Source: Marsupella aquatica
Lineage: Eukaryota > Plantae > Marchantiophyta
NCBI GenBank assembly: GCA_973895155.1
Contig: OZ316891.1
Span: 30,759,112 to 30,823,111 of the forward strand
Length of the DNA: 64,000 nucleotides
Direction of reading: 5' to 3'
Made by a program: the position numbers and the translations under genes. Of the stretch, positions 9,905 to 52,800 are shown one piece after another. Position 1 is the first letter of the stretch, and every line of letters starts with the position of its first letter. A model generated the notes under the pieces. The model did not search any database. It saw nothing but the letters and a program-made list of their open reading frames with translations, and was not told the DNA's origin.

Positions 9905-9964
9905 CTTGCTAAGTGCAACCTTTACCTTCCTCTAATCTCTTCACCCCGTCCCTAGCAAATCAAT

Positions 9965-13090: not shown

Positions 13091-13121
13091 TTCTTCCTCA
13101 CCTTGCGGCCCAGAATGTATT

Positions 13122-24320: not shown

Positions 24321-25902
24321 GCGTGTTCATCTTTAGATGCTGGTTTGTATATACGTCAACGAAAGGTTGACGATGAGAGGAGAAAAAACAAAATTCTTTA
24401 TGATTTATTTCAGATTAGCTAGTGGACGCTTTAGGGGTTAATTTAGGTTAGTCTTTTAGATACATTTTTTTCTCCATCAAATAAATAATTACATGTATTC
24501 TAGTTCAAACTTATATTATTTTGAGGTATCATATTATAATGAATTATCTTCTCCTTGTATTTATTGATTTTTCTCAAATTTAAATGCAACCCCAACTTAT
24601 CATGTTTTGTACTATTGCGAGTCCGGAATGGTTCATTCGGACCCCACTAGAGGTCCCTTCCAAAATTCCTGGCACCACAGTGTGTCATGTCAACAACAAC
24701 CGCAACAAACAAGACTCATAAGTTTTGTGAATCAAACTTATAGTTTTCATTCATGTTTGTATCAATTTGAGTGTAAATTTTGGGATGCCATGTTGTAAAA
24801 AGAAAAGTAAAAAAGTGGAAATGCAAAGAGCAAGACAATTAAAACTGTCACTGTGTAACCATTTAATTATTTCCAATTTAAAAATTTAAATTCAAAGATT
24901 TATAAAATATATTTTTCATATAATAAATAATGACTAATAATTAACTTGATAACTTCCTTGTTAAAGGGTAATTGACACCTGGAGTAAGATTTCCAATACT
25001 TTATAATTAAGGTAAACTACTAACCATGGTCTGAACTTGAACACTTGACTAATTCATACAATTCATTTGATCAGACATTCATCTAATTGCAAATGAACTT
25101 GTCACTGATTGAATTCTGATTTTCCTAGCTTGAGAATTTGGTAGCATATAACGAAAAGGCCTGATTTTGACAAATACTTGTGATAACCATACTGTCAATT
25201 AACCAAGGGTCCACGAACTAATTGGTATAGTGATAACTCTCGCGAGGCCGGAAAAGGCCGGAGAGGAGGAAGACCGAGACTCCGAGAGAGGGAGGGAGTG
25301 GGAGCTCGTGCATAGCTTTGTAACGTACGAACGAGACGTCGGGAGGGCCGAAGGATTTGCTTCGCACTGCAGTGAAGGGGTTTGTAAGGCGCTTCCTCTA
25401 GTAGTGAAAAGACAGACGAAGTGAAACGCGGGCAAGGACGGATACGGACACCCGACCAGCGCGTTTTGATCTTAGTTGATCCCTGATCCGCAGCACGAGC
25501 AGGAGGGAATTGGACACCGATTTTGCGTGTAGGTCGTTCTCATGAAGGTCCTTTGCGGAAGAGAAAAATTGTCCTCGATAGCAATTGTGATTCCCAGTAC
25601 CGATCCCGGACGCGTTGTGGTTCTTGCTCAACGAGCGGAGTTGTCTATCTGTTTCGTCCAGTGCGGAGGTGTTGGCGGAAATTAATGAAGTCCGGTGGAT
25701 CAGCTGCAGCTGCGGGGGGATGAAGCAGATTGAGTGAGCTGATGGTGAGGAAGAAAGATCAGTGCCGATGTAGATAGACAGAAGAAGACTCTTTGCATTT
25801 GAGTCTTGGCGTTGGCACCGGGCAACGCCATTGAGCTGAGCGAGAGCAGCAACAGGAATACTCACAGAATCGGAATTTGTGCGAGCAGTGAGGACTGGCG
25901 TT

Positions 25903-27153: not shown

Positions 27154-27185
27154 TGTTGCACTGCAATTTCTATCATGCAATAAAT

Positions 27186-30100
27186 ATTGCATCACCCAAG
27201 CCTTTCGCCTGCACTTCAAGAGATTCGGTTTGCTGCTGTAGTTCTGGAAGGTGAAAAGGATTTCAAGGACATTGTCAGATACTGGGATTTGAAGCAAATG
27301 GCAAATCTATTCCCTAAACACCAGTTTAAGTTGCGAATCGGATTGCTGTGAAGTCAGCTTAGTAGCTTTTCCGTTCAGTTTATGAATTGATGGTCCAGAA
27401 TAAGTTGAACTTTGTTTGTCAGCTTGCTTCTATTTTTCCTTATACGCTTGAGGAGCATAGACTTGCATGCCTACTTGTCTGTAGAGCTCACATTCAGCCT
27501 GCCAATCACTTGTTTAGTCGCACTGTGAAAGGAATTCTTAGTGCTACCATGCAAGGATTGATCCAACAGGGACACATCGAACTATTTTCCTAACGCCTGA
27601 TAATGATAACAACCATTTGCAAAACGAGTCAGATTCCAGTCAAGCAAAGAAGAACAAACCAATTGGGCTTCACATTGGTCGAGCTCAAAGTCTCGGTCTT
27701 CCAGGAGTTTGAGGTTGTACTTGAAGTCACTGGTCAAGAGAGCCAAATGTTGCTTGAGTGTACTGATCTGCACATCTCGCCCGTGCACAAGTCCCGCAGC
27801 TCCCTCAAGTCAACATCCATTGTGTGCTGGGCCTTACCATGCCCGCCGCTCTTTGCGCTCATCTTGCTAAGTGCAACCTTTACCTCCCTCTAATCTCTTC
27901 ACCCCGTCTCTAGCAAATCAATGATGTTGTGATCCTCATCCGCAAGAATCGATGCTACATAGCTGTTACTTGAAATTTCCTCCACACACAACTTCAATTA
28001 TGTTGTCATCCTCATCCCCAAGAATCCAAGCTAACTGGCTGCTACTTGAAATTCCTCCAGACTCAACTTCCACTACGTTGTCATCCTCATCCCAAGAATC
28101 AACTTCAATTATGTTGTTATCCTCATCCCCAAGAATCCATGGTGCATGCCTGCCACTTGAAATGACTCCAGGCACAATTTCATACTAAGGTCACTAATCT
28201 CAACGTTCTCCTTGCAATGCTTTCAGGTTTTTAATGTAGAAGTCATGCACTTTTCTGTCAGCTCCGGTTTCCTATGCTGTGAGTCGAAGCACTTGACTGT
28301 TGTGCCTTAGTCTCATCTGGACCGTGTATTTCAAAATTGACGGTGGAGATGCGTCCTCCAAACTGTGGGTGCTCGGTGAACCCGGGCACTGACGGTGCTT
28401 CAGGACCGTCGATGGGGTGACTTGCACAGTCGGCCGAGCATCGACGGCCTGTGAATGTGGGTCTAACATGAATAAACGAAATGAGACCTTCGTTTCCTTT
28501 GCCCGAAATTCTGTCGCAGTAATTGATCCCGACTTCTCGAAATGACGATGTTCTAGACAAATCCCCGAGCAAGAGGCCTTCGCTGATTTCATGGACCTCC
28601 TTCTCAACATGGGATATGTACCAGCTTCGGAACGGTGATCTTTCGAGTAATTGGGCCCGATTTCTCGAAATGATGTTCTAGACGAATCCCGAGCAAGGTT
28701 TTCGATGATTTGATTGTCCTCCTTCTCAACATGGGATATGTATCAGCTTCGGAGCGCTGATCTTTCGAGTAATTGGGCCCGATTTCTCGAAATGATGTTC
28801 TAGACGAATCCCCGAGCAAGGTTTTGGATGATTTGATTGTCCTCCTTCTCAACATGGAATACGTATCTGCTTGGTAACAGTGATCGTTCGAGTAATTGAG
28901 CCTGATTTCTCAAATTGATGTTCTGGACAAATCCCAGAGCAAGTCTTAGATGATTGATTGTGCTCCTCAACATGGGATGTGTATCAGTTTCGCAAAGGTG
29001 ATCTTTCAAGTAATTGAGCCCGATTTCTCGGAATGATGTTCTAGACAAATCCCCGAGCAAGGTTTTCGATCATTTGATTGTCGTCCTTCTCAACATGGAA
29101 AACGTGTCAGCTTCGTAACGATGATCTTTCGAGTAATTGAGCCTGATTTCTCGAAATGATGTTCTAGACGAATCCCCAAGCAAAAGGTTTTCGATGATTT
29201 GATTGTCCTCCTTCTCAACATGGAATACGTATCAGCTTCGTAACGATGATCATTACCTCCATCTTCTATGAGGCCTATCAGCACAGATTCTAAATGAGCC
29301 GGGATCAAACGCCTCGTCCTTTCGAGCATGATTGTATGAGAGAATGAAAAGGGTGACGAAAACACACATCATGCCCTCATGCTCCAAAAACACATCTTAG
29401 TGTAAACATACCCTGTGAAGTTTCACCGTTGAGCTATCGTCGGCGTTTTCCCCACAGCTTTTTCACATTGCTTGCTGCGTCCTTTTGTGTGGCCCTGTAG
29501 TCTGACCTCAACTCTGACTTGATCCTAACCTGAAGAATCTGGGGTTCCTCTGTTGTTGTCAGCATCTGTTAACTGTTGTGAGGGTGCTTTGCTCTCGCCT
29601 ACTTGGAAATCTGAGACCTGTACGGACGGTATTTCTTGGCCTTTATTGCTGCTCGCCACCGGTACCCTGTTTCTCTCCAGCTTGCTCTCTTCAGATTGCA
29701 TCGTGCTTTCACTTCTGCCCCATCTCACACAGAAATCAATCAATGAAAAGATCCGCCGGAGACAGGAATGAACTAGATAGTATGCAAGTACATGTACTAA
29801 GTTTCACCCACCTACAGGTGAACGTTACAAAGAGGACGTGAATCAAGCGGAACCTGAATTGAGAAGGAGCAGCCCACTTTGAAGACTCATCTAGCTGCTT
29901 CCCCACGGTGCTTGCACCCTCTGGCCTCTGTACTGAAGCCTCAGCTAACGTGCTGCTGGTCCTTTGGATAGGCGATGTCAATTCTGAATGATTGATATTG
30001 TGCAGAGTGTCATCTTCTTCGTCGGAAGAGTGTGTTCCAGTTTCACTGTCCTGAGCTTCATCAGCTTCTTCCGCCTCACTGGAAGCCTCCAAGCGACCTT

Positions 30101-31110
30101 GTTCTCCTGGAGAGTGGTCGTTATTTTCACTGTCATCTACTTCATCACCTGGTTCAAAATCCCCTGAATAATCTGAATGATCTTCTTCATACCCACTTTC
30201 TTCTATGTCGTCATGGTCGTCAGAATAGTTGGACCTATCTGTTATAGTCCAATTAGAGTGCCTGGCTACACTAAAATTCCCGCCCAATGAGACCATAATG
30301 ACCATCAGATATGCAGAACCATCTCCACTGCCCAGTCCAGCAAACTGGATTATGGCAATCGAGATATGCCTAGCCTAATATCCCACAATGTAGTTTAGCA
30401 AATTTGTATTTAAACACCCGAACTCCTGTTCAGCTCTCTAGTTGAGGATAAATATAGACAGATGGTAACCCTACTGATTACAAGCTTTCAACTTTTGCAG
30501 GTGCTGACTGCTTTGATGAGCGCTCCAAAAGCCACAGGAAATCTATCGGAGATTACTACTGTAGTGAATCGGTTGGAGCGATCTTGGTATCACTCTTGCT
30601 GACTTGAGCAGCCAGTCCTAACAGCAGAATACTGGAAGATGCTAAGTGGCAATCCATATAGTCCAGGAGATCCAGGAAGTACCCACAGTATGTACAATAT
30701 GTTGCTTAGTAACGAGCAAACACACAGCAAAGCACAGGCTGCCTCATACCTGACCACTGCGCTTTCTTGTTCCTTCACCTAGTGGCACTTCAATTCATGC
30801 TTCTCCTGCTCTTCAGCAGTTGCATGTGACAAAGAATCGTCACCAACGTTTAGAACCATCTCGGAATCATCATCTGATGAAGTATCTCTTTTTAACTTTT
30901 TCTTTGCTGTACAGTGCCTCGTTCTCTTGGCTTCAGCAATCGGCTCGGGAACAGATTCATCCCCTAGATTCAGAATCATTTGTGATGCCCCCTCAATGAA
31001 TCATGTGACTTCAGTGCTGGTATGCTCTTTTGCACATTCAGCGCTCTGCCAATTTAAAGGGGAATGGAATAATCAGTTACATTCACAATCATGACTAAAT
31101 AACCATCTGG
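27186..31110 (+). repeat. Direct segmental duplicate of 8457-~13060 (CCDC57-like 5' exons, minisatellites, acidic-protein gene), with internal deletions
   Basis: Paired near-identical ORFs: 9623/27582, 10299/28258, 11474/29525, 12533/30590. Deletions correspond to ~8689-8902 and ~8974-9527. Confidence 0.93.
28520..29250. repeat. Minisatellite, ~122-bp unit, ~6 copies (paralogue of 10560-11200)
   Basis: CTCAACATGG block at ~28603, 28725, 28848, 28966, 29089 and 29214. Confidence 0.9.
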
Positions 31111-33519
31111 CGAACGATGCACCATCTCAGTAAACAATAGTTCGTCTTCTTTGTTCTTTCACGCGTCAGACTGAATCCTGCTGTGTCCACAGTGATATCT
31201 TTCTTGTTGGAAACTTTATTTGATGATGCCCTTTCTAGTGAGCTAAAGGAGGACTTGAGCCAATGTAAGTCTGACTTGAGGGATGCAACTGGAAAGACAA
31301 TGAACAGTCATCTACCATGTTTTGGTTTACACATCCTTTCCAACTTTCGTGGACAATGTGGCATTAGAGAAAACGTTAACATTTGAACACTGTCCATCCC
31401 GATTTGTGAAAGTCCATCTGAGCATATCAGCAAAATTTAGGTCCACCAGGCAATTTTTTGGAATGGTATAACCCATCAATAGGTGAACATGAGAGAGTTT
31501 CTAAAGAGGAACAACCTTCATTACAAATAAATAGATGTTGCTCACAAAATCTTACTATTTGTGATTAAAAACCTACTTTTATGGCTCAGGTGTAGAGTGA
31601 AGCCTCTAGACTGTAACTCGGGGTTTATCACTTAACTTTGGGGGTGCATAAAAGTGGGGGTGCAAGGAATGGAGAAAAATCATAAATGAGCATGAATAAC
31701 AAGGAATCTTTTTCTTGCAAGTTTTTTTTTGTACTCACCTATATTTATGTTCAAAAGAACAATTAGTCAGGCTAGTCAAAGTAGGAGACTGACAGGCAAG
31801 GAGAACAGATGATGTTAGTCCTCTTCAAAGCATGAACCCTAAACCTTTCTGATTGATTGGCCCTAGTATGTAACAATTTCCTGTTGCCCAGATCACCTCT
31901 AGAGAGGAGGCACCACAATCCTACTTCTAAAGGCTCAAGATCTCTTAGTTTACAATCTGAAGCAACTACCTCTTTGGTTGGGTTGCATTGGCCATTAATA
32001 GTACATAACAGCCAGGCCACCCTTACAGTATGGGGTGTCAGAAATTGGATTCTGACTCACTACAAACATTCCATTAAAGTGGTTTTGGTTTGACTAAACA
32101 CTATAAAAGCAATGATCACTAGCAACTATGTCCTCGGTCCATTGGTAAATGCTTGCACGTCCTGTGTTTACACAGAAAATTTGATCTGTCCCATGCAGTT
32201 CCATAGACTGGATAAAACTCGCTCATTCAGCCATTTATTTGTTCCATGAATTTAGCTGGAGATGGCTGGATTGACTTGGGTGTAGTCTGTAACTTTTGTT
32301 GCAGTGACCAATTTGGACACCCCTAATAGATCATTTCTACATTGCTATATCGAGGGGGTCAATGCATCAATGCTTCCCAATCATCTAGTGCTACCTAGAG
32401 GAGACCTTTAATGCTCTTTAAAATTACTGTAAGCTAAACAATCTTGCTAAATGATCATGCACAATAAAAGCTTTATCTGTAACCATGAACTCATGTGAAC
32501 CACACAAATGAAGGCCAAGAACTTGAAGACAGTTACAAACAGTGGCAGGGAAGGGCATAATGGCGACATCCAGTTAGTTAGTGAGTTGGAAAGGTGAGGC
32601 ATTGTTGGGTTGGGTGGTTGGTTTGGCTTGTCATTCTGTCAATTTGCATCAGCTCTCAAGTACAAGATGTGGACTATCACTGGCTAATCTACACAATGGT
32701 CCTCCATGGAAGCTCTACCGATATCCAACTGAAATGTCCCGGCACAGTTAGGTTCGGGGACAGACTAAGGACAAATTCACTTTCAAATATGCTAATGTGG
32801 AACTGAGAGATATGGATTTGCTGTAAACAAAACTTTCACACACAAGCAAAGAATTGCCTCCAAACTATTTGCATCATTGACTCACTGAGAATCTCTTACA
32901 TTGATATTCACTGATCAAGAAAACACCACTACACCAGGAATCCCGTAATCAAAAGACATTACCCTTCACTAAAGAAGTACAGAGTATTTTCAATCTCTGC
33001 CACTAGCTTGGCAGTAACAATCAGACTGACTTTTTTAGCTTACGCAATAAAGGGCAAAGGCAAAGGATCAAAACATGAATTGAGAAGTTCTTGACCAATT
33101 TTTCCTGGCTATGCCTTGTATGAGGTATAATGACCTCTACAGAGAAGAGTATTCAAGATTGGACGAAGAAACAATCCAAATATCCTAATCATAGTTTGTC
33201 CAAAGTAGTTACCAGTTTATTATGAAATAACAGAATGAAAATTTTTCACATAGATTGAAGAGCATATATGATTCTTGATAGGGTTGTCATCGTTTTCCAA
33301 CCTAGAAAAAGGGGGCTTCCAGATAGCCAGTGTGAGAGATTTGATTTGGGGTGTTTATTCATCCCATCTTCAATACTCCTCCGTTCAGAGGTCATTTCAA
33401 GCTATCATACAGAGGAATAAAAACAATGAAAGACAAAGATGACCAACAATGCTCGGGACAAACTTGATGCCTCTTGTGCCAATTCAAAGAATCTAAACAT
33501 TTGGGCCAGCTAAGAACAA

Positions 33520-35337
33520 ATGAGGGGTTCAACTGGTGGGTGTCCAAAAGTTGCACAAAGACATCTGGAAGAAGACAATAGTGCAAGAGAGTTGCACAAA
33601 GCTGAAGCTGGAGAGAGGCCTGATAATTACAACAAGACTAACAAACAGAAAGAGGGCTCTATCGTTACAACTAGAAGGTTGGCCATTGTGACTACTCACA
33701 AATGGATAGTAATGCTCAAAGCTTGGTTTCACGGGAATTCAACTACTCAGTCTCAGGAGCCCAACCCTCCTCAAAGGTGGCTCTGCTTTGTGATTTGGCT
33801 TCTCCTGGTGCTTATGCTCTTACTAATTTCTCTAGGCTCTACTTGGTTGAGCCATTTGTGGAGGCCCAGTGTGAATGAAGGTGATGAGATAGCAAGCTTG
33901 CTGCAGAAGTATGGCTTTTTGACCAACGAAACCGAATTTGAGGACACCCTAGTCCCAGCATCATGGACTGAAAATCATAGCCCGTTGAGTCCCAACATCT
34001 TCAAATTGGAGAGAGCTGTTCAAATACTCCGTGGGATACTCCACTGCTCCTCTGATCTCAAGGGGCCAAACAAAAGCAATGGTACTCCAGATGCATCATC
34101 TGCCAACAAGAACAACGAACAAATAAACATTGCAGACTTCAAGTATGAATATTTTGAAGAGTGTCCGCCTTACTTCAATTGGATTCGAGAGGATCTAGCT
34201 CCTTGGAAGGAATCAGGAATCTCACGAAGTAGTCTTGAGCTGGGTAGGAGATATGCATCATTCAGAGTTATCATTTTGAAGGGCACATTGTATATTGATA
34301 TATTTAATGCATGCTTTCAAACTCGTCTGTTGTTCACAGTATGGGGACTGTTGCTCCTCTTGGAGAAGTATAACACCAAAATTCCAGATGTGGAGTTTAT
34401 GTTCAACTGCGGGGATAGCCCTCATGCCAAAATAGACAACAATGTGGCAGTTCCTCTCTTCAGCTACAGCAGTAGTCGTTCATATTATGATATCCCTTGG
34501 CCAGATTGGTCATTTTGGGGCTGGTCTGAAATATATATGGAATCATGGGATCAAGAATTTGACAAGATTACCAAGGGTTCCAAAAAGAAACCCTGGAGGG
34601 ACAGGGACAAGAAGGCATATTGGAGGGGCAACCCTTTTGTTGGACTAGGAAAGGCAGTCTTTCGGGAGCAACTTCTTTTCTGTCACAACACAACAAACAA
34701 TACCAAAGTTGACGTAATAATCCAACATTGGTATGAGGAGCTTTTGAGTAGAAAACAGAATTCCAAATTGGAAGATCAATGTACACATAGGTATATGGTG
34801 TATGTTGAAGGGGTTTCTTGGTCGGCAAGTTTGAAGTACATTATGGCATGTGGATCTACAACAATGGTGGTGTCACCAAATTTTTATGACTTTTTTCAGA
34901 GGGGACTTCAGCCAGGGGTTCACTATGTCCGAGTGCAGCCCAAAGACAGCTGTAGTTCCAAGCTCTGTCCCAAACTTAATGAAGTGGTTGACAACCAAGA
35001 ATTAAATCCATCAATGAGGGGAGAAGCAATTGGCAAGAATGGACAAGAATTTGTAAGAACACAGGTTAGCATGGACAAGGTATATGACTACATGTATCAT
35101 GCTCTGGTCAAGTATGCTGAGCTACAGGAGTTTCAGCCGATGATTTCCAGCTCTGCGCACTTGGTGACACAAGATTACATTCTTTGCCTAGCCCAACCCC
35201 TTCAAAAGTTGTTGCTGAAACAAGCAAGGAAGCACATGCCATCAAATGTATTACCTTGCAGTATGTCAATTGATAGAGCAAGATTCTTCAAAGATTATGG
35301 GTGGGAGGCTTACAAACCTGCCAACAACACCTGCTAA
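33520..35337 (+). CDS. Glycosyltransferase family 90 (CAP10 / Rumi-KDELC-like), type II membrane protein; true start may be the second Met
   Basis: 605-aa uninterrupted ORF with an N-terminal TM segment. Motifs CPPYFNWIREDLAPW, FQTRLLFTVWG, PDVEFMFNCGD, DIPWPDWSFWGW, AYWRGNP, YVEGVSWSASLKYIMAC and VYDYMYH. Confidence 0.93.
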   Translation: MRGSTGGCPKVAQRHLEEDNSARELHKAEAGERPDNYNKTNKQKEGSIVTTRRLAIVTTHKWIVMLKAWFHGNSTTQSQEPNPPQRWLCFVIWLLLVLMLLLISLGSTWLSHLWRPSVNEGDEIASLLQKYGFLTNETEFEDTLVPASWTENHSPLSPNIFKLERAVQILRGILHCSSDLKGPNKSNGTPDASSANKNNEQINIADFKYEYFEECPPYFNWIREDLAPWKESGISRSSLELGRRYASFRVIILKGTLYIDIFNACFQTRLLFTVWGLLLLLEKYNTKIPDVEFMFNCGDSPHAKIDNNVAVPLFSYSSSRSYYDIPWPDWSFWGWSEIYMESWDQEFDKITKGSKKKPWRDRDKKAYWRGNPFVGLGKAVFREQLLFCHNTTNNTKVDVIIQHWYEELLSRKQNSKLEDQCTHRYMVYVEGVSWSASLKYIMACGSTTMVVSPNFYDFFQRGLQPGVHYVRVQPKDSCSSKLCPKLNEVVDNQELNPSMRGEAIGKNGQEFVRTQVSMDKVYDYMYHALVKYAELQEFQPMISSSAHLVTQDYILCLAQPLQKLLLKQARKHMPSNVLPCSMSIDRARFFKDYGWEAYKPANNTC

Positions 35338-37511: not shown

Positions 37512-38861
37512 TGTGAAGACCTGGGCCACCAACCCTATTGGAAGGGCTGAAAATCCTAGGAGAATTGTTTTCGTTCAAATACATTTGGATAGGCTCAAAA
37601 CCCCAAGGTACTGTCCTTTGCTTTGGTTAAAATTACAACTGGAAGGAAGAGAAATCACAAGAGAAATTATAAGCTTAGATTAAAAACGTAATTTCTTTTG
37701 TCTGTTTAAGATAGTATATCATGTGAGAAAGATTATGGTTTAGCTTTAGTCTTAATAGGGTGGGCTTTGAGACTAGAGAGATCTCAACGAGAAAATCTTC
37801 AAAGTTGCTCTTCATCTTTCTTTTTATGGATGCCTGTATGGAGGTAATCTTTCTGAGGGGAGCAAAGTTGAGATTCAATTTTATCTGATGTGTGGGTCAA
37901 GTCTGACCAACGTGAATCCAAGGTGTTGCAGTGGTCTTGGTTTAGTTGGACAGTGGAAGTCAATCCGTGAGGCTTCAGATCCGATTGCCGGCTACTGTGA
38001 GGCTTCAGATCTGATTGTCGGCTACTGTGGGGCTTCTTCAGATCTGATTGTCGGCTATTGTTGGACGATGTTGGCAAGGCACAAGTGAAGCGACGGCTCT
38101 TTTCCTGAAGGAACGGAGCTGCCAATGCCCCGTGCGATGGTATCATCATTTCAGTGAAAGAAACGAGGGTCAAAGGTGTTGAATCAAGTTGCTGCCAGTT
38201 CTGTGGAAGGGCTGCATTTTTCATGAAGGAAATCGACAGTTTTCGAGAGCTTTTCGTGAAGGAAGTAGTCATTTTTGGGGTCAGGTGTGAGGTGCACGAG
38301 GTCACCCATCCCGAAAGTGCTTGCGCAAGGCGACGCGTGAGGTCACCCATCCCGAAAGTGCTCCCAACCGCGAGCGCGAAGTCACCCATCACGAGCGCAG
38401 GCAGGCGTGAGGTCGAGGTCACCCATCCCGGGGCTATTCCGGGCCGTGAGCGCGAGGGGAGGCACAAGGTCGAGCGCGAGGAGGTCACCCATCCCGGGGC
38501 TATTCCCAGCCGCAAGCACTTAACTGGCAAGTTCTCATCCCACCTTGTGTACACATAAGCTTTGACAACTTGTTGTTTAGATTCAAGCGCCAGGGGGCTT
38601 TATACACTTCCCAATTTGTTTAGAGGCCTATTCTAGGCCAAATCAGATGCTGTTTTAGGGTTTTTGATACTTCTGAGTCCATCTAGACTCACAGATTGAA
38701 CCAATTTTGCCTTGGTTCTCATCTACAACATTGGAGTGCCATTGTGAAGCCTATTATGAAGGCTCTTCCTTGAACCTTATGCACATTGTCATATTGATTT
38801 GCATTTGCTTTTGTGTGGAGAGTTGAATGGTATCCATTCTTGTTTCTGGATCCTCTTCACA
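37512..38861 (+). repeat. Putative 5' LTR of the methyltransferase-carrying retrotransposon
   Basis: Begins TGTGAAGA (37512) and ends TCTTCACA (38861), a perfect 8-bp TG..CA terminal inverted repeat. Internal subrepeats: GGCTTCAGATCTGATTGTCGGCTA-like x3 at ~37970-38057 and GTCACCCATC x5 at ~38320-38510. Lies directly upstream of gag. No matching second copy seen. Confidence 0.5.
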
Positions 38862-39065
38862 CATGTTTCCTGTTTATGCGCCATGTTAGTTTCATGTGGG
38901 CGCTTGATTCCATAGGAGTGATCCGGGTTTGCAACTAGACATTCTAGTGTGCTGTGTATTTCTCTCTTGGTGATGTTGGAGTGATGCCCAACACACCATG
39001 GTGAGTGCTTGTGGTGCTGACAGGGATAGATTGCCCTTAGGGTTAGCACATAGATTAGGTTAGGG

Positions 39066-41825
39066 TTGGTCACCACGGATTCTTCTGGTGCTGCTGGATT
39101 ACCCGATGGACGACGGACCGGTTTCACTCGGAGTGGGGCACAGTTTCGGCCAACGGCATTGGTAGCAGTTAGCAGTGCAGCTTCAGACAGTAATTCTGAT
39201 GAGGACTCAGTGACCAGTTCTCCTCATCATCAGGTGGTTGCACCTTTGTTGTGGGATATGGACGAGATGTACGGGGCTACAAAGGGCCCACGACGATACT
39301 CTGGTGCAGTTGGCACAATTGATCTGGATGACTTCATCCAGGAGTTTGATACGTGGTGCGATATGCAAACATTGCGTAACGTCACGTTGTTTACCCCTTT
39401 CATGGCATGGAAGGGATTATTCCAGCATTTGGAGGGGCCACCCATGGATGACTACCATGAGTTTCGGAAGGCTCATTTGGTTGAGATTGAGGCATGGAGG
39501 CAGCATTGGTCGCCTAATTACGTGTCCATCACCTATGGCACTAGTGCGGCTGCCCAACCCATTTCCACATCTACTGCTTCTTCTAGCAGCACTAGCCAGA
39601 GTGGCACACCATCCACCAGCAGCACTCCAGCAGCATCCACCACTACTCTTACCGGTGTGATTGTGACAGGAACTGGAGTTGCGCCAGCATTTAATCCTGT
39701 GGTGGAATTCTTTGAGGTACTGAAGCAGAACTATCAGGGTGTGAGAACTGATAAGTTGAAGGGTCTTCAAGAGTTCCAACGCAAGACTGGAGAGAGCCTA
39801 CGTGAGGCATACACACGTATGCGCAGATTGATCACTGTCACCAAGGGAGTGACATAGGCTCAGGCAGTCCAGTTTTGGTATGCAATTCTGGACAGAGAAT
39901 TGCGACGCAGAGTGAGAGATGTCACTCTGCTTAGGGATGCAGATCCCACATTAGTAGTTGTTTTCACCCTTTCTGAGCGCATTGAGCTCAATATGGTGAA
40001 TGAGAAGGTGGTGACTTTCGGATTTGCCAAGGAAGCACCAAAGGCTGCATCTACATCCACACCACAGCCTACTGCATAGAAGAGCCAGAGGGAGAAGCCT
40101 ACTGCACGAGAGTCTACCAGCCAGAGACCTGTGCCCTCTTATGCTGGACAGCAGTCAGGATGTTGGACCTGTGGTGGGGATCATGCACAGAGATATTGTC
40201 CAGATCATAGAGGATCAGGGGGAGCATCAGTGCTTGATCAGCGACAGTGTGATCATTGTGGAGCTCCTGGACACACCAAGGATAGGTGTTTCTCACTCCA
40301 CCCTGAGTTACGGAGAGGAGGATCCCGTACACATGATCAGGGAAGAGGAGGTAGAGGTGGTGGACGTGGTCGTGGCATGCCACATGCAGGGAGACAGGAA
40401 GGTGACGCTGCCCCTGCTATAACCATAGATCCAAAGGATGCTAAGATTGCTCAATTGGAGCAACAACTAGCTGCCATGGCTAGTTCCCAGGTGAGACCTA
40501 ATTCTGGTGATGGGGCATCTACATCCTATGGACCTTCCACATCCCATGGTCCTTCCACATCTTATGGAGCTGATGGAGACCTTGCCACCATGGGATTCAT
40601 GTGTGGCACTGCACATATTGATGCATCAGCAGCTTTGACACGTGGGGCAGCCAAAGCTCTTGAGCCTCGAGGAGCAGTAATGGAGTTAGATCCACAAAGG
40701 GGGGATGCACGTCGGCAGACAAAGCTTCCTCAGTCTTTTACATTGTCAGAGACAGTTCAGACTGCCTCTATGAACCCAGTTCGGACAAACCCTGATGTGG
40801 GTAAGTTGGCAGAATCAAGTAGTGATGCAGCAGGGATGACATGTACCTTGCTGGGGGCGGCTACTGCCATAATATGCACCCCATTATTTTTAGCGATAGA
40901 CATGCTGAACTTGGGATTTGGTCCTGCAGAAGTGTTCAGATTGGCAGCTACACTCTGTGAGGACACTCCAGTGGTTCTTTCTCATGCAAAAGCAACTTGC
41001 AGTGTTGATGCAGTGAAGACCATGCCACCTACTACTACTAGTGAGACATGGCATGCAGCAGCAGCGAGGTTGGTGGATTTACCAGCACGCCCTGCATTTG
41101 AGAGGACTAGGTTTAAACCTAGTGTTGTGTCATTGGATAATCGGAGTGGTATCTTCCGATTAGTTGGGCCTTCTGGAGCAGTATACCAGCCAGAGAGAGT
41201 GTTACTGGATACTGGTGCTCAGCCCTTGATGTTGGGGAAGTCTGCCATACGTGGATTGGGATTGCATCCAGAGGATTTGGAGGATTGTCCCTTTCCCATT
41301 CAGACTTCATTGGGGGGACCTACACCTACACAGCATATCACCAGGAGACCACTTGATTTGAGGATTCAGGAAGGTCATACCACAGATAGCTCACAGATAC
41401 AGGCGCGAGCTATTCTGACTAAGGCAGAGTCATATGATGTGTTGGTGGGATGTACAGTGCTCTACCCCATGGGATTTATTCTTGATTTTTGGGAGGAATC
41501 AGTGTCATATAGACCTGATTGGCAGTCAGGAGATGCTCGATTGAGCAAATTGCCAGTGAGATTTAGTGGACCTGTGGGAGGCCCTAAATCCACACCATTG
41601 TCTTTGGCAGCATTCAGTGGTGTAATTGCTAGACTTGATGATTTGATTGAGGGTAATGCGCATGCAGCCGATGTTCCACCATTGGAGGAGTCTCATGAGG
41701 AGCACATCATGCGAGGATTACCTGTTGGCAGTGTTGTGCCACCAGTGTGGGGCACTGCACAGGCCTTGCCACAGGCAGCAGCACGATTGGTACATGATGT
41801 ATGGCGTCATGCTTTTACACCATAG
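39066..41825 (+). pseudogene. Gag (capsid-like region, two zinc knuckles, RGG tract) and aspartic protease
   Basis: FQRKTGESLREAYTRMRRL (retrotransposon gag motif), CWTCGGDHAQRYC and CDHCGAPGHTKDRC knuckles, protease VLLDTGA (~41200) and YDVLVG. In-frame TAG at 39855, 40077 and 41823. Confidence 0.88.
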
Positions 41826-41858
41826 TCAGGAGCAGAGCAGTCTCTTGCAGATGGACCT

Positions 41859-43049
41859 GTGACTCTTTCACCATTGGATACCACTCCTATTGCTTGGCAG
41901 TATCCACCGGAGGGTATTTGTTTGTTGGATCTTTTTGGTGGGATTAGCACTGGATTGGCTGCTGTTCTTCAGGCAGGAATTCCTGTGCGTCATTATTTGT
42001 ATGTGGAGACAGATGAGACAACACGGAGGGTCTCATTGCGACATGTGGCTATGTTGGTGGATAGATATCCACAGTTGCTGCCAGTGGATGCTGTTCGTGG
42101 TTATCAGCATGCACTACCTGCTGATATTTCATTGTTGGGGGCGGATCATCTACATCGTGTTGGCCCCATTGATTTGGTGATTGCTGGTTGGCCATGTCAG
42201 GGCCAATCTAGAGCTGGCGTTGGGCATGGACTTCATGATCCACGCTCTGCATTGTTTTGGGAGATGTTACGGGTGCTACGTCATCTCCAGCTACATCAGA
42301 CACAGTCTCCAGCATACATTTTGGAGAATGTGCCATTGTTAGGTGATGATCGTAGTCAGATTGTTGCCAGTGTTCACCAGGTGAGGTCTTGGATTGGACT
42401 TGCTGTGTTATTGGATGCTGCACGTGTGGGTTCTCATGCACATCGTCCACGCTTGTGGTGGACTAATTTGATCCCATGCGAGGTGCTGAAGCGTGCATTT
42501 GACAACATTCCACGCTCACCAGCCTTAGTGGTGGATGATATTTTGGATCCAGGGCGTCGTGCGCAGGGTGTGACCCAACCTGATAGACCTCCATTGGCAA
42601 TGGTCAATGCAGTTGGGTGCCCACGTTGTGCATTACCCACTCTTATCAGCCACTCTGCTTCATATGCATTCAGAGCAGGTGGCCCTGGACTTGTATGGGA
42701 CACAGCTCTCCAGCAGTTAGTGGAGCCTACTGCTGATGAGAGAGAGCGTGCTATGGGATTTTTGACTGGCACCACTTCAGTTGCCTCTGTATCAGAGGGT
42801 TTGCGGCGCCAGGTTCTTGGTCAAGCAATGGATTTGAATTGTTTGACTTGGATTATCAGCTTGGGAGTAGCTGAACAGTTGCGGATGCGCTCTGCCAGAA
42901 TTACTGATTGTCCCTTGGTGAGCTTGCGGTCCACTGAGACAGTATTGACCACAACTGGGGGCGAGCAAACAGTCCATGGACCTATGACAGGATTGGCAGC
43001 TGGACAGATTGTTGAGCAGGAAGAGACTGCTCAATCTACTGCTAAATAG
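41859..43049 (+). CDS. C5-cytosine DNA methyltransferase catalytic domain, DNMT3-like, embedded in the retrotransposon polyprotein frame
   Basis: Motifs in canonical order: I LLDLFGGISTGL, II YLYVE, III ADI, IV DLVIAGWPCQGQS (catalytic PC), V R..LFWE, VI YILENV, VIII AHRPRLWWTNL, IX ERERAMGF, X RRQVLGQAMD. No internal stops. Confidence 0.92.
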   Translation: MTLSPLDTTPIAWQYPPEGICLLDLFGGISTGLAAVLQAGIPVRHYLYVETDETTRRVSLRHVAMLVDRYPQLLPVDAVRGYQHALPADISLLGADHLHRVGPIDLVIAGWPCQGQSRAGVGHGLHDPRSALFWEMLRVLRHLQLHQTQSPAYILENVPLLGDDRSQIVASVHQVRSWIGLAVLLDAARVGSHAHRPRLWWTNLIPCEVLKRAFDNIPRSPALVVDDILDPGRRAQGVTQPDRPPLAMVNAVGCPRCALPTLISHSASYAFRAGGPGLVWDTALQQLVEPTADERERAMGFLTGTTSVASVSEGLRRQVLGQAMDLNCLTWIISLGVAEQLRMRSARITDCPLVSLRSTETVLTTTGGEQTVHGPMTGLAAGQIVEQEETAQSTAK

Positions 43050-43154
43050 TAATCATCGGCTATCTCTTCTACCCTACAAAGAGATATTAGGGATTTGGTG
43101 GAGAGTTAGGAACCACAGCTTGGCCCTAAGTTAACAGGGGAGGAGAGACGTCGC

Positions 43155-44540
43155 ATGCATCGATTCCTGAAGAGTTATTGGAATTGTTTTGCATTCAGCA
43201 TGAAGGATTTGGGGACATTGAAGGGCCCTGGTATTCAGATTGAATTGGCTAGTGATGCGCCAATCTTTCGTAGACCATACCGTTATAGTGACATGGAGAG
43301 AGCTCTGATTCAAAGCAGAACTCAAGATTTGTTGGAGGCTGGATTGGTGGAGATTTCATATGGGGAGTATGCATCTGCCACAGTGATGCCAGCCAAGAAG
43401 GATGTGCATGGCAATTACACAGATAGGCGCATGTGTGGTGATTACAGACCTATTAATCGCCAGACAAAATCTGATCGATATGCCATGCCCACACCTGAGG
43501 AGATCTTTGATGCTGTGGGGCATGCAAAGGTTTTCAGTTCATTGGATCTGAGGGCAGGATACCATCAGCTTCCAATTAGGCATGCTGACAGGTCCAAGAC
43601 AGCATTCTGGGGGATTGATTCTTATGGCAAAGATCGTTTGTATGGTTATTCTTACCATTTGGGTTGAAGAATGCACCAGCTGAGTTCTAGAGAGTCATGG
43701 ATCGAATCCTTGCAGGTTTGGATTTTGTCAGATGTTATATTGATGAGATTTTGGTCTATTCTTCTACTGTGGAAGAACATCAGCAGCACTTGCAGACTGT
43801 GTTGGAGAGATTGAGAGCACATGGGTTGAAGCTCCATCCTAGCAAGTGTAAGTTCTTCCAAGACCAGATTGAGTATTTGGGCCACACCATATACCCAGGG
43901 GGATTGGGTGTACAGCAGACTAAAGTGGAGGCCATTACACAGATTCCTTGTCCTACTGATGTGAGTAGAGTTCGTGCATTCTTGGGATTGGCGAGCTACT
44001 ACAGGAGGTATGTTAAAGGATTTAGCCAGCTTGCTAAACCTTTGACCATACTCACTAAGTTGGATCAGGAATGGATTTGGGGTGATGACTAGGAGCATGC
44101 CTTTCAGGAGTTGAAGCAAAGGTTGGCATCATCCCCTATTTTGAGAAGACCCATTTCAGGCAGACCATTTCAGCTACACACTGATTGGAGTGGAGTAGGA
44201 CTTGGAGCAGTGCTGACTCAGAAGGATGATGAGGGGAATGAGTTTGTTGTGGCTTATGCCAGTAGATCAAACAATTCAGCAGAGGCTAAGTATAGCTCTT
44301 ATGAGGGAGAGTGTTTGGCAGCAGTGTGGGCTGTTGCACACTTTCGTTGCTACTTGTTTGGTAACCCCTTCACCTTGATCACTGATCATCAGCCTCTTAA
44401 GTGGTTAATGGAGTCTGACAAGCTTACAGGGAAGCTTGCACGATGGGCATTGTTGTTACAGGAGTATGATTTCCAGGTGGTGCATAGGCCTGGAAAAGTG
44501 AACTTGGATGCAGATGGATTAAGCCGCAATCCATGTACCA
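43155..44540 (+). pseudogene. Reverse transcriptase and RNase H
   Basis: RMCGDYRPIN, FSSLDLRAGYHQ, KTAF, LPFGLKNAPAEF*R (after the frameshift), CYIDEILV (YIDD changed to YIDE), LHTDWSGVGLGAVL and YSSYEGECLA. Confidence 0.93.
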
Positions 44541-44899
44541 GTCAGCAGGATGAGACTGGAGCCAGATGGCATGATGAGTCAGATAGGGAGATGGTGCCAG
44601 GATGGCATGCATCTGCCTTTCTTTGTTGGGTGCCAGCATACAGTGGATCTGTGGACTCTACCTCATTGGATGGAGTGGATGATGAGTCTTCAGATGTGGA
44701 TGTTGGTGAAGTAACTTCTGGACAGCAAGATATTCACAATGATGTGAGAGTGTTGGAATATCTGCGCAATAGTTCTATTGTTGGCAGTGTTGATGCCAAG
44801 GAACGTGACAGGGTTCTACAGAGAGCCAAGAGGTTTCGATGGGAGGGAAACCATCTTTTGAGAGTACTGCATGATGGTAGGATGTTGGTGGTACCAAAA

Positions 44900-46171
44900 C
44901 CATCACAACGAGTACATTTGGTGCGACATGCGCACGAGGAGTTGGGTCACTTTGGTGTGAAGCGCACTTACAGCTTGCTGCAGACGCAGTATTGGTGGCG
45001 TGGTATGCACACTCATGTCCAGCAGTTGATAGCTAAGTGTGTGGTATGTGACAGAGTGAGAGCATCATTTAATGCTCCCACTCCCCAGTTGCACCCATTA
45101 CCGATCATGGGTTTGGGATATCGTTGGAGTTTGGATTTTGCTGGTCCATTACCTCTTACCCAACGTCATAATCGGTATGTTTTGGTCATGGTGGAGCACT
45201 TCTCCAAGTGGATTGAGCTAGTGGCGTTGCCAGATAAAGCCAGTGGAGGAGTTGCTGCTACATTTTTGGATCGTGTACTTAGTCATTTTGGAGCACCAGC
45301 TGAGGTGTTGACTGATCAGGGAACTGAGTTCCGTGGAGAGTTTGAGAGTTTGTGTGAATAAGCTCTGATTGATCATCGCACTACCTCTCGTGATCATCCT
45401 GAGGCAGATGGATTAGCTGAGAGAGTTGTGCAAACTGTGAAGAGAGGATTGCGTAAGTATGGCTTGCAGGTTGGTCATCTGGGAGATTGGGATCTCCAGC
45501 TACCTTGGTTAGCTATGGGCTACCGTTTCAGTCGGCAAGCATCACTTGCATCCTTCTCACCCTACTTTTTGCTCTATGGTAGAGAGCCAGATTTGCCAGC
45601 AGCTATTCGTCGTCATGCTGCACCAGTTGTGAACTTGGATGATCCTGATGTTTGGGTCAAGGTGTGTTCAGAGAGAGCACGGGTATTTCAGAGAGTGATG
45701 CCCATGGCTTTTGACAACCTTGCCATTGCCCAACATTGTGATACTTTGAGGTATGCCACTATTCGTGGAGGAGGTTACCGTGCAAGCATTCGACGATTTC
45801 ATCCTGGTGATTATGTTTATTTGCAGCAGACAGCACCCACGACACTTGATGTGACCGCAGGCCGGACAATCTTACGTGTGCGTGAAGTGTTGCCTTCTGG
45901 TGTCCTGATGTTGGAGGGACGCGATGGTATGGTTTGGAAGGATCATGTGCGCAACTGTGCACCATGTCACCTTCCCAACATTGATGGTACAGTAGATCCA
46001 AGCTTGGCACATGTTCGTGCTGGCTTGAAATGTATGTTGTGTGGATCTGCTCAGGGAGCAGCTACTATGTTGATTTGTGATAAGTGTTCTAGAGGATGGC
46101 ACATGTCATGTTTGACACCACCATTGCAGGTGATTCCTAGTGGATCATGGTTGTGTCCTCAGTGTCGGTGA
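44900..46171 (+). pseudogene. Integrase (HHCC + DDE) with C-terminal PHD finger
   Basis: HAHEELGHFG...CVVC; WSLDFAGP, VLTDQGTEF and DGLAERVV (past TAA 45359). PHD C4HC3: CMLC...ICDKC...WHMSC...WLCPQC at ~46031-46168. Confidence 0.93.
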
Positions 46172-46346
46172 AGCCGACTAGTTATCATTTGTGTTCTCTT
46201 GGCAGATATGGATTGCAGGTAGGTGATCGATGGGGCTCACTTGCACCCGGCCTCCTGATCTTCACACCTAAAAAGGTGTATATCAACCTTGTAGAACTCA
46301 TGGCTAGCTAGAGTTAGGGGACCTTACTCCCAGCTAGGGGGGTGAT

Positions 46347-46951
46347 TGTGGGTTTTGGACATGTGTGGACATGAGTTCCACTTGTATTCCATTCTCTTGT
46401 ATTTGTGATGTGGCAGTGTGACTATGTCTGGATGTATGTGACAAGCGATGTATGTTGTGTAGCGATATGTATGCGCACGACAGCTGTCACACCATTCTGA
46501 GTAGTGTAGTAGTATATCGTGCTATTAGAGTATGTACGTTTGGTATGAGTGCTATTGGAGCCGATAAGGTTCTGTCAGGTTTGTGTGAGAGGGTACTTCT
46601 CACTTGTGAGGCATTGAAATGTCATCTTTCAATGTTGAGCCTTGGAGAGAGAGGAGCTTGAGTGTGGCTATGGTGGCTGTGAGCTCCGCTTGTGTAACGT
46701 GGATTCCTTGAGTAGTGCAAGGTGCGTTGGCTTGACATACGTGTGTGATCGGATCGGTGCGGGATCGATGGGGTATTGTTGACCGAGATCGTTGTGCCGA
46801 TTGTATGGAGATTATTGTGGGTTTTGGACATGTGTGGACATGAGTTCCACTTGTATTCCATTCTCTTGTATTTGTGATGTGGCAGTGTGACTATGTCTGG
46901 ATGTATGTGACAAGCGATGTATGTTGTGTAGCGATATGTATGCGCACGACA
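46347..46951. repeat. LTR-like unit (TG...CA) with identical 136-bp direct repeats at both ends (46347-46482 and 46816-46951)
   Basis: TGTGGGTTTTGGACATGTG...ATGCGCACGACA occurs twice. Polypurine tracts flank it on both sides in opposite orientation. Confidence 0.85.
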
Positions 46952-49562: not shown

Positions 49563-49861
49563 GGCGAGCTGGAAGGGAAACGGGTAGGCCGGCAGAATGG
49601 AAGAGTGTGAATGCAAACTGGTAGGCGAGCAGGAACGAAACTGGTAGATGCACAGGATCTATGATTTCACTGCTCATTCTTGGCATTGCAAGAATTGGGA
49701 AATGTGTTGACTTGACTGGCTCATCATGGCGCTGAGCTTCAATCGGGTGTGCGTCTGAATCTACTTGATTCGCTCTTCCTGGCGATGAGCTTAATCGGCA
49801 AGCAAGTTCTCCAGGGAGAGGTGTACATTGTGATTTGTTAATTCAGAGCTTGATGGCCACC

Positions 49862-52800
49862 ATGGAGGTCGTCGAGGCCCGAGCTCCTGGCAAGGTGATA
49901 ATCAGCGGAGAGCATTCGGTGGTGCATGGAACTCCTGCCGTCGCGGCCGCTCTCGACCGTTACACGATCGTGCATATCGAAAGGCCGACTACAGTTGTTG
50001 GTACTTTCCCTTCCCCTTCACAGAGGAATCAATTGATCGCGTCTGCAAATTTCTTTTCCAGTCTAGATCAGAACGAGAGTGAGAATCATTGCGCTTGTGC
50101 GCTTTTGAATCGTGGCCTGTTTTCCGAGAGAACGGTTGGATAATTTTATGGCCATCCTTATTTTTGATGTCTTCAATCTGTAGACAGAAAGATCAGTTCT
50201 CCACCTATCGTTTCGCGGGCCCGATTTAATAGAAATGATTTCAAAAGCGCCAGATGAAGATTGGTACAGAGTATCGGGCCATGCGTCAATTGGCAGGATG
50301 TGATTTTAAGAGAGAAAAAGAGAGGAGGGTAAGGAGGGGGGGGGGAGTAAAAACGGAGAGATCGCCATGAAAGACAAAACATACTGCTATACACTAGAGG
50401 CGTCTCACATGGTCAAATCAGCATTCTCAAGTACCCATGCTTTCTCTGCAGGCGATAGTGGACTTCTATCCGTCGACCTTCCGGAGATCAACTTGCGGCT
50501 GAGCTGGCCCATGCAATACATCAAGCAATCTCTAAATTTCCCATTGATAGAAACAGACGCTCTGGAGACAGAGCAAATAGAGAGTATCAAGGCTGTTCTC
50601 GAAGATTTCGTCAAGAGAGAGATTTCGTCGAATGCAGACAAAGGCGCAAATGCGGGAGTGGCGGCTTTCCTCTTCCTCTATGTTTCTATCGTAGGGTGAG
50701 AACACTCTCCGCAGATTTCCATTTTACTTATGAATGACCTGCATAAATGTTTGCCAAAACAGGAGGACCCGAGTATCTGGGCTGTGATCATACTTTTGTC
50801 ACTCCGTATTTAAGGTGGTTCGCTGGCGTACATGTGCACAAAAACTCTTGAAATGAGCGTGTGTTTATAGTAGGCTTGCAGTAGGAAACTACCCTTTCCC
50901 AGGTCTTTCCGTAGATTTCATGACTGTTTCTGTCAACAATTGGGAGAGAATCCAGAACTGATTCCAGCACAGGGTGCACTTTATGGCCAGTAATACAGTA
51001 GTTCTTCGTTCTCTCTAAGCTCACCATTGGAAGCCTGTGGTCTTCTTTCCCCTAGACAATATAGAATGCCATAGCTTTTCAAACAACTTCACACTTTGGA
51101 GCAGCATGGATCTTGAGATTCTTAGAAGATGGAATCATACCCACGCCGAAATTTCTTTGATAGTTAATTGTACGAATAAATAACGTTTTAGAACACTCTC
51201 GGATCCGAATTCCTTTGTAGGGTAAGTTCCTCGTCATCAAGGAAGTGGAACTTTTTCGACGAAAGTAATTGTGGTCTTCTGAAAGTGGGGGGCGCTGATA
51301 TGGCTAATAGTTTCACAATTCAGGTTGCAGCCTCTGGAAGTGATTATCACATCTGAGCTCCCAGTGGGGTCAGGCCTCGGTTCCTCTGCAGCATTCTGTG
51401 TAGCTGCTGCTGGTGCGTTGCTTACATTGGCCGGTAAGGTGGAGCTTCAAGCCGATGGATTGAAACGCAAATGGATGGACTTAGAAGATACCGGACGGAA
51501 TCTGGTTAACACCTGGGCCTTTGAAGCTGAGAAGATCATTCATGGAAGGCCTTCAGGTGTTGACAATACTGTGAGTTGTTATGGTGAGTGTGAGCATCTT
51601 CACGTTCTCCTGGTTTTCATCAAACCATAGAATTATAGACCTTTATAACGAAACTGGAAATTGGCTGTCTGAAATAAAGACAATTTCTACAATGGACTGT
51701 CATGGAAACAAGTAACTAAAGCGTTATCAATTAACTGCTGACCATATAAATCAACGACAAACATGGATTGTCCAAGTTGCAGCCAATAACGGTAACAAAG
51801 TTGAGTGAGTCTGTTACGGGTCTCATTGCACCAGAGCTTTGGGAATCATTGTTATTTCATCTGAAGGGAGTCGTTGTTGACATTTCCACAGGTCATGTTG
51901 TGCGGTTCCAAAAAGGCCATTTGACACGTTTGCAAAACCCCATGCAACTCCGGATGTTGATAACAAATACGAATGTGAGCCGGAACACAAAAGCACTAGT
52001 TGCTGGTGTTGGAGAACGTGCAATTAGACATCCCACAGCCATGGCTGCAGTGTTCCAAGCTGTTGAAGCGATTTCCGAAGAGATTGTTTCCATTCTTGAG
52101 TCCCCGACTCCAGCTAAAAGTAAACAACCAGAGCAATATACTGCCGGGGCTGGACCAATTGCCCCAGTCCATGTCAATGGGATTGCTACAAATGGAAGCG
52201 AAGTTCATGGGAGCAAAGGTGCTGAACCAATTGCCCCAGTCCATGTCAATGGGATTGCTACAAATGGAAGCGAAGTTCATGGGAGCAAAGGTGCTGAACC
52301 AATTGCCCAAGTCCAAGTTAACGGGATTGTTACAAATGGAAGCGAAGTTCATGGGAGCAAAGGTCAAGATCCCATTCCTAGTAGTTTACAGGTATTGTCA
52401 CGGCTGGAGGAGCTGATGGTCATGAACCAGGGTCTTCTGCAATGTATGGGTGTCAGCCATCCCTCCATCGACGAAATATGTCAAACTACCTCGAGATTCC
52501 GTCTATGTTCCAAGTTGACTGGAGCAGGAGGCGGTGGCTGTGTACTCACGTTATTGCCCAGTGGTACTAACTCTAACTACCCTGTTATTGCTTTTGGCTT
52601 CTCTTTCTTTTTGGTTTTCGTACGTGAAAATCGGAACTGTTTTATTTGCACGAGTTTTCCAATCGAAGCCAGCATACACCAGTGTTGCATTAGAAGATAG
52701 CATTAAACACGTCTTTTCGATGGGGAAGTAGAAAAACAACAGCTTTAACTGGAATGAGGTTGAATTGAGGCCCTTTGCAAGACAAATGGATCAGGAAAGT

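Follow-up and report, generated by a model that had tools for sequence, protein, structure and literature searches.

A Gypsy retrotransposon in the genome of Marsupella aquatica (Marchantiophyta) encodes a DNMT3-like C5 cytosine methyltransferase (MTase) behind its Gag and protease, and the frame that carries the enzyme ends at a conserved stop codon just upstream of the reverse transcriptase (RT). The element lies in a stretch of 64,000 nucleotides (the window; assembly GCA_973895155.1, contig OZ316891.1, positions 30,759,112 to 30,823,111), in which positions are counted from the first letter and all element features are on the forward strand. An earlier interpretation made from the letters alone, here called the sequence-only reading, had described a Gypsy polyprotein with an internal MTase. 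On balance we favour a reading in which open reading frame 1 (ORF1) encodes Gag–protease–MTase, the stop is read through at a low rate, and the MTase is packaged in bulk and likely methylates newly made cDNA.

The element encodes a complete DNMT3-like methyltransferase

The coding region, as judged from its open reading frames, occupies two frames (39054–43667, then 43646–46171) with the domain order gag, two zinc knuckles, protease, C5-MTase, RT, RNase H, integrase and PHD finger. Protease, RT, RNase H and integrase lie in the order typical of Ty3/Gypsy elements and the integrase is of the DDE type, which bears out the earlier assignment to Gypsy. A DIRS or other tyrosine-recombinase element was considered and rejected: there was no such Pfam match in the eight element frames, and an rve integrase was found instead.

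The MTase domain (41895–42878) is complete, as had been claimed, with its motifs in the linear, non-permuted order FGG (41934), PCQ (42192), ENV (42324), HRPR (42441), ERERAMGF (42738) and GQAMD (42819). The window frame matches PF00145 with an E value of 1.3e-11 (44.9 bits against a cut-off of 22). Among 37 matches to sequences of solved structures, 29 were DNMT3A, DNMT3B or DNMT3C (best, DNMT3A, E 2.7e-11) and none was a chain named DNMT1, MET1 or CMT; HaeIII (E 1.2e-4) and DRM2 (E 4e-3) matched more weakly. A structure model built from 59 sequences (predicted local distance difference test score, pLDDT, 95.7) superposed on DNA-bound DNMT3A with a Z-score of 29.8 and a root-mean-square deviation of 2.5 over 273 residues (Foldseek E 4.6e-20). 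The top 34 rows of the fold ranking were DNMT3 structures, with a bacterial CpG MTase at Z 26.1 and HhaI at Z 24.3. Together, sequence matches and predicted fold support the proposal that the domain is DNMT3-like and not of the MET1, CMT or DRM type.

The catalytic cysteine and glutamate are invariant across the 59 aligned sequences, and the RxR motif is retained in 201 of 209. The PC motif is less constant, being kept in 36 of 47 sequences of the type in which the protease precedes the MTase (protease-first) and in 64 of 162 chlorophyte-type or unplaced sequences; EC stands in its place in Closterium and certain other relatives (P0309, P0286). The domain contains no intron, has no ends of its own and gave no DUF3444 match. 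A viral collection held 21 distant MTases, 27–43% identical over part of the domain, that served as outgroups only, and an Atlas search returned generic PF00145 clusters only.

The window copy is itself decayed and dead. Beyond the natural stops it has eight more, its frame shifts near 43642 and the 5′ repeat is missing; at three of these stops, nearly all other contigs have another letter. A search of the window found neither a 5′ A repeat, with no match to the 3′ A segment, nor a primer site. With no difference between the two terminal B repeats over 139 nt, the insertion is not of great age. As the sequence-only reading had pointed out, the MTase domain is free of stops. With eight stops in the other 1,979 codons, however, 1.3 would be expected in 328 codons and the chance of none is about 0.27. 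The stop-free state thus says little, being compatible with chance, and we rejected it as proof of selection on this copy.

The methyltransferase is a constrained part of the element family

A search at E ≤ 1e-10 returned 77 relatives with up to 87% identity, the named ones from Marchantia, Calypogeia and Sphagnum. By genus, identity was 73% in Marchantia and 72–74% in Calypogeia; relatives were also found in Sphagnum, Closterium and Klebsormidium, and in all of them the protease precedes the MTase. Contig depth gave the same picture: MTase bins were as deep as protease and RT bins in four of four runs (in run X1, 261–288k against 223–322k for neighbouring domains and about 100 in the flank). 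Such depth is not a copy number, and in three of the four runs the depth of the element exceeded that of its flanks by a factor of hundreds to thousands. A single contig, at a depth of 296 compared with about 200,000, skips the MTase domain. The MTase therefore belongs to the element family and not only to the window copy.

The ratio of non-synonymous to synonymous substitution rates (dN/dS) supports purifying selection on the MTase between families, with values of 0.11–0.16. Comparisons among three stop-free loci (L019, L021, L023) gave 0.14, 0.13 and 0.11, and the window compared with the peat-moss-type loci L002 and L001 gave 0.14–0.16; for the same pairs the protease showed 0.11–0.18 and the RT 0.05–0.10. 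Neutral evolution, which would have counted against the earlier interpretation, is not what these values indicate. Decayed peat-moss-type copies had median values of 0.58 for the MTase, 0.53 for the RT and 0.68 for the protease, and were excluded as support. This drift to 0.58, with stops in the MTase frame of 16 of 16 peat-moss-type copies, indicates that selection operates while the element replicates and that copies already inserted are not subject to it. The idea that this one copy captured a fragment of a host DNMT3 by chance, or received it as a nested insertion, and that it evolves neutrally is refuted by relatives with the same position in five named genera, by even depth across the element, by the layout of related loci, by dN/dS below 0.2, and by the lack of an intron, own ends or DUF3444, with nothing found in its favour.

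A second layout, RT–RNase H–MTase–integrase–PHD, was present in 240 of 393 proteins, those named coming from the chlorophytes Scenedesmus and Hariotina. In this chlorophyte-type group (P0154, P0183, L039, L041, L043, L045) the MTase sits between RNase H and integrase and is accompanied by a PHD finger; no description of the group was found in the literature searched. We built a FastTree phylogeny of 219 dereplicated MTases (from 358), in which the window grouped with P0001, Calypogeia, Marchantia and Sphagnum (0.996). All 47 protease-first sequences, including P0371 of Klebsormidium, formed one clade (Shimodaira–Hasegawa (SH) support 0.84) beside the chlorophyte type (0.83). IQ-TREE on 38 of the protease-first MTases supported the bryophyte clade at 100 and the wider clade with Klebsormidium at an ultrafast bootstrap (UFBoot) of 62. 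In a tree of RT–RNase H from 90 sequences, nine protease-first elements formed one clade (1.0) inside the other type. The simplest reading of these sequence comparisons would be one old capture followed by a later move of the domain between positions.

The MTase is 70–74% identical in Marchantia, Calypogeia and peat-moss-type loci (window 41895–44560 compared with P0394, P0083 and L002). One intronless host gene of the window is 76% identical to its counterpart in Calypogeia fissa, 59–62% in Marchantia, 47% in Ceratodon and about 40% in seed plants, a pattern that, for this one gene, points to a liverwort, probably a leafy one, as the likely host. Across Calypogeia, Marchantia and mosses the MTase stays level while the identity of the host gene declines (76%, 60% and about 50%), so the element may have been transferred horizontally among bryophytes.

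A conserved stop codon separates the methyltransferase from reverse transcriptase

The sequence-only reading had placed the MTase between protease and RT in one open polyprotein frame. The position holds; the single frame does not. ORF1 (39258–43049, with the frame open upstream to 39054) ends at an in-frame stop, TAG TAA TCA (43047–43055), which we take as natural: the sister protein P0001, 87% identical, terminates at the same residue. Five Marchantia gene models of 1278–1281 amino acids, unbroken and matching the layout of ORF1, end 77 residues past the MTase, and Calypogeia models end 79 residues past it. This stop had been missed earlier, as had the C-terminal PHD finger and the split B–A–B repeats.

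The peat-moss-type junction was covered by 28 of 36 loci, with TAG at the stop site in 16, TAA in 10 and a sense codon in 2; the next codon is CAA in 27 of the 28, followed by CCC and ATG. In a second clade the junction reads TAG CAG TTA (L019, L021) or TAG CAA TCA (L023, L046), so that all four loci have exactly UAG-CAR-YYA. This is the type I readthrough motif of tobamoviruses (PMC3542737), for which the text of PMC2754532 gives 6–10% readthrough in plants and a requirement for C after the stop. The window junction agrees with CAR-YYA in five of six places, its second stop being also that of the decayed peat-moss copy L040, and the peat-moss family, with CAA CCC, likewise agrees in five of six. 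By comparison, CARYYA follows 0.46% of the 3,042 stop triplets in the window. Between L019 and L023, which are separated by a dS of 1.3, the motif differs only at degenerate places although the encoded amino acid changes. The RT is in frame with ORF1 in all three lineages, beginning 17–24 codons 3′ of the stop, and the interval from stop to RT lacks an in-frame ATG in the window as well as in L019, L021 and L023. Predicted folds 3′ of the stop were compared and shared no structure. Sequence conservation and the tobamovirus analogy suggest that the ORF1 stop is likely leaky and set in a programmed readthrough context.

A model for enzyme dose and substrate

In the arrangement that we propose, most ribosomes would stop after Gag–protease–MTase and a minority would read on into RT, RNase H, integrase and PHD finger. 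By analogy with the viral motif, readthrough is probably of the order of 5–10%, which would put the MTase at roughly ten times the amount of RT or integrase. With somewhat greater assurance we expect the protease to free the MTase inside the particle, where it would be present at about the copy number of Gag. We are less sure of the substrate, and lean only slightly towards the element's own double-stranded cDNA or a fresh insertion, which would be methylated de novo so that the copy arrives already marked. A methylated new copy could then either pass as host chromatin or silence itself, and the PHD finger might steer the integrase to a particular chromatin state. Our best guess for the methylation context is CG, by analogy with DNMT3A and with SymbioDIRS-Dnmt3, which methylates CG de novo in yeast (PMC5890265).

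Several observations weigh against this model or narrow it. The peat-moss context is imperfect, and an in-frame ATG lies two codons past the stop in 26 of the 28 peat-moss-type junctions, an arrangement that fits reinitiation as well; two of the 28 have a sense codon at the site itself. The peat-moss loci represent one family from few assemblies, so that the independent lineages number about three, and the junction DNA was compared in loci of related families, the window family being represented by the window copy itself. Single open frames through protease, MTase and RT exist (P0128, P0411 and P0481 of Closterium), and the stop is therefore not universal; the first protein search covered proteins of up to 2000 amino acids, a range in which full-length fusions could not appear. 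The grouping with Klebsormidium is weakly supported by both its SH and its UFBoot values. CpG depletion, tried as a mark of self-methylation, was rejected: the observed/expected ratio of the element (0.34) shows no stronger depletion than that of a host gene (0.24) or the flank (0.26). Finally, the activity of the enzyme is predicted here from sequence and fold, and the Klebsormidium enzyme was inactive in yeast, a result called inconclusive by its authors (PMC5890265).

Of the other explanations, the one that survives best has the MTase made in excess to act in trans on host chromatin, on other family copies or genome-wide, as copy control or methylome remodelling, and not mainly on particle cDNA. 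A supply at the level of Gag would be far above the need of two genomes per particle, and Marchantia has at least five unbroken ORF1 gene models with a full MTase. We nevertheless think a trans role unlikely: chlorophyte-type relatives hold the MTase within Pol, which fits a role in cis better, non-CG methylation in Marchantia sperm has been assigned in published work to the host enzymes MpDNMT3b and MpCMTa, and MTase frames decay after insertion, as the peat-moss-type copies illustrate.

Somewhat less likely again, in our judgement, is a tight stop, with Pol translated independently, either by reinitiation at an AUG close by or from a spliced transcript; the MTase would still be made at the level of Gag, without a Gag–Pol fusion. 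The ATG just past the peat-moss-type junction favours it. No such ATG occurs in the window, L019, L021 or L023, however, and exact maintenance of CAR-YYA across a dS of 1.3, together with an RT in frame with ORF1 in every lineage, is better explained by readthrough.

We regard as quite improbable a domain retained for nucleic-acid binding or RNA methylation and not for DNA methylation. The inactivity of the Klebsormidium domain in yeast and the replacement of the proline of PC in Closterium and others agree with such a role, whereas the invariant catalytic cysteine and ENV glutamate, the near-constant RxR and the best fold match, to DNMT3A bound to DNA, argue for a DNA methyltransferase.

Relation to known systems

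The closest known element is KnitGypsy-Dnmt3 of Klebsormidium nitens, a Gypsy element with A-coding-B-A-B repeats and a non-synonymous to synonymous ratio (Ka/Ks) below 0.2 (de Mendoza et al. 2018, PMC5890265). According to the text of that paper, it shares with the window element the Gypsy domain set, an intronless, non-permuted DNMT3-like domain and the DIRS-like repeat layout. Because this charophyte element is a Gypsy with the same repeats, the window element probably belongs to the same lineage and is not a new capture, and we consider its lineage likely to be the land-plant branch of KnitGypsy-Dnmt3. The K. nitens gene model P0371 has the same gag–knuckle–protease–MTase order. For KnitGypsy-Dnmt3 the authors describe one ORF that contains DNMT, RT and RNase H, whereas in the land-plant element the DNMT is set apart from the other two by a conserved stop in a readthrough context; P0371, a protein model, extends 12 amino acids beyond the MTase, and a stop may therefore be present in part of the Klebsormidium copies as well. 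The window element has a PHD finger, and none is mentioned in the text of the 2018 paper. Ours is thus a known kind of element extended to land plants, the new parts being the land-plant range, the chlorophyte sister layout and the conserved leaky-stop context.

SymbioDIRS-Dnmt3, SymbioLINE-Dnmt and the EpiLTRs are likewise described as retroelements that encode a C5-MTase. The first two are tyrosine-recombinase or long interspersed nuclear elements, unlike the window Gypsy, and the EpiLTR DNMTs, sister to DNMT4 and accompanied by DAM and a chromodomain, are stated to be distinct from Gypsy-DNMT3 (bioRxiv 10.64898/2026.05.21.726589). A DNMT3-type catalytic domain also occurs in the host enzymes of non-flowering plants, PpDNMT3b and MpDNMT3b (PMC6453930, bioRxiv 2021.02.12.428880); as described there, these genes carry DUF3444 and lie outside any retroelement, in contrast to the window MTase. 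The Chlamydomonas elements Gypsy-7a_cRei and REM1 resemble the window element in having a PHD finger in a Gypsy polyprotein, and a methyltransferase is not among the domains listed for them in the text of PMC9940879.

In tobamoviruses (UAG-CAR-YYA) and in murine leukaemia virus gag-pol, a leaky UAG sets the ratio of upstream to downstream product, as we propose for the element, in which, unlike in those systems, the stop follows the protease and an accessory enzyme and directly precedes the RT. In avian leukosis viruses the protease lies inside the Gag frame, as it does in the window ORF1. PMC2754532 also names rice Gypsy elements as candidates for readthrough.

No report of a land-plant DNMT3 Gypsy family or of a readthrough site at its ORF1 stop was found in the literature searched, although supplements and closed papers may hold one. 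PMC12344493 and the 2026 preprint speak in their text of 'streptophytes' without naming land plants, and their supplementary trees may include bryophyte sequences. Methyltransferase and PHD go unmentioned in the text of a survey of plant long terminal repeat (LTR) elements (PMC6317226), and a Marchantia methylome paper lists five host DNMT enzymes, none of them an element ORF1 model.

Coding regions and terminal repeats

Coding defects of the window copy are spread along its length. A putative 5′ leader (38030–39257, start approximate) was delimited by contig depth, which exceeds that of the single-copy flank from bin 37834–38167; in the relative L028 the leader is about 1.1 kb. Short tandem repeats occur at the leader start (37967–38059 and 38282–38517). 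The frame is open 5′ of the first ATG (39054–39257) and contains a TRSG stretch that recurs in L028, where no in-frame ATG accompanies it; translation of Gag may thus begin at a non-AUG codon. The capsid-like Gag with two CCHC-type zinc knuckles at 40161 and 40248 (39258–40316) gave no Pfam match in the window copy and is 84% identical to the N terminus of Marchantia models named CCHC-type. The aspartic protease (41088–41570, DTG at 41208) matches PF13650 at E 0.0045, under the cut-off for that family, which is exceeded in the relative P0309. ORF1 is interrupted by stops at 39855, 40077 and 41823.

Downstream, the RT (43110–44089, PF00078) is preceded by a stop at 43107 and broken by the frameshift near 43642 and a stop at 43688; its motif is YIDE, compared with YIDD in 11 of 11 matched loci. 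RNase H (44093–44560, PF17917, E 1.5e-37) has a stop just upstream at 44090, and the integrase (44735–45800, PF17921 and PF00665), with an HHCC zinc finger and a DDE core, is interrupted at 45359. The C-terminal PHD finger with the final stop (46031–46171) matches PF00628 at E 2.4e-11.

The element has split repeats in place of two full identical LTRs with a tRNA primer site. The complete loci L028, L032 and L040 have the layout A-coding-B-nn-A-B, start with TGTC, end with CA and are flanked by 4-bp target duplications (3 of 3). The window retains the polypurine tract and B–A–B only: a polypurine tract (46332–46342), whose G-run recurs 5′ of B in L009, L019, L023, L028 and L032; repeat B1 (46345–46482), with GACA at its end and 139 of 139 nt identical to B2; segment A (46485–46813), which starts with TGTC two bases 3′ of B1, in the position of the 3′ A repeat of L028, L032 and L040; and repeat B2 (46814–46951), whose GACA forms the 3′ end of the element and past which contig depth drops to flank level. 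L019 and L023 share the GACA-nn-TGTC junction.

None of the 14 complete 5′ A copies is preceded by a B. On this count we discarded the simple model of a two-LTR circle opened at either B–A junction. We infer that the functional LTR is B-nn-A and that the integrase uses the internal GACA-nn-TGTC junction. In L028 (1679–2033), the 5′ A is followed by 16 bases that are reverse-complementary to A positions 164–179, just below a TATA-like box, and the corresponding matches in L032 and L040 span 9 and 10 nt; the bases directly 3′ of the 5′ A in these three loci are thus complementary to the likely transcript start inside A. This sequence complementarity suggests self-priming without a tRNA. Self-priming is known in Tf1 of fission yeast.

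Other features of the window

Outside the element, the window contains an inverted repeat (6240–8456 and 14873–16825) with arms of about 2 kb that are 96–99% alike, and a direct duplication of about 5 kb in pieces (8457–13642 and 25789–31118; 94–99% alike) that includes a 123-nt tandem array. Host genes encode an isoprenylcysteine-methyltransferase-like protein (25903–27153), a glycosyltransferase 90 (33523–35337) and a GHMP kinase with internal 72-nt repeats (49769–52700), which we take to be mevalonate kinase from its motifs. A fourth host gene (62647–63540), again judging by a motif, encodes a kinesin-like N terminus and contains an exact 279-nt tandem duplication.

Significance

The role of retrotransposon DNMTs has been open since 2018 because their hosts are hard to work with. 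Marchantia polymorpha, a genetic model for which methylome mutants exist, carries the family described here, and its unbroken Gag–protease–MTase frames are annotated as hypothetical proteins (for example Mp4g09160, Mp5g06330, Mp5g06860, MpVg00370 and MpVg00540). The conserved stop yields a testable prediction on enzyme dose, and the split termini with self-priming pose a separate mechanistic puzzle for integrase biology. More tentatively, a functional DNMT3 may have persisted for hundreds of millions of years in an old Gypsy lineage of green plants that spans chlorophytes and bryophytes, with the domain changing place between two sites in the element. In land plants the enzyme would lie on the 5′ side of a leaky stop and be made at capsid level. 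On this wider view the elements would prime themselves, integrate through the internal GACA-nn-TGTC junction, which would be unusual for a DDE integrase, and form an unrecognized source of de novo 5-methylcytosine in Marchantia and peat moss, with the elements' cDNA, and perhaps host chromatin, as the target. Should the enzyme prove active, such copies could contribute to de novo methylation in bryophytes and distort the results of studies on methylation mutants.

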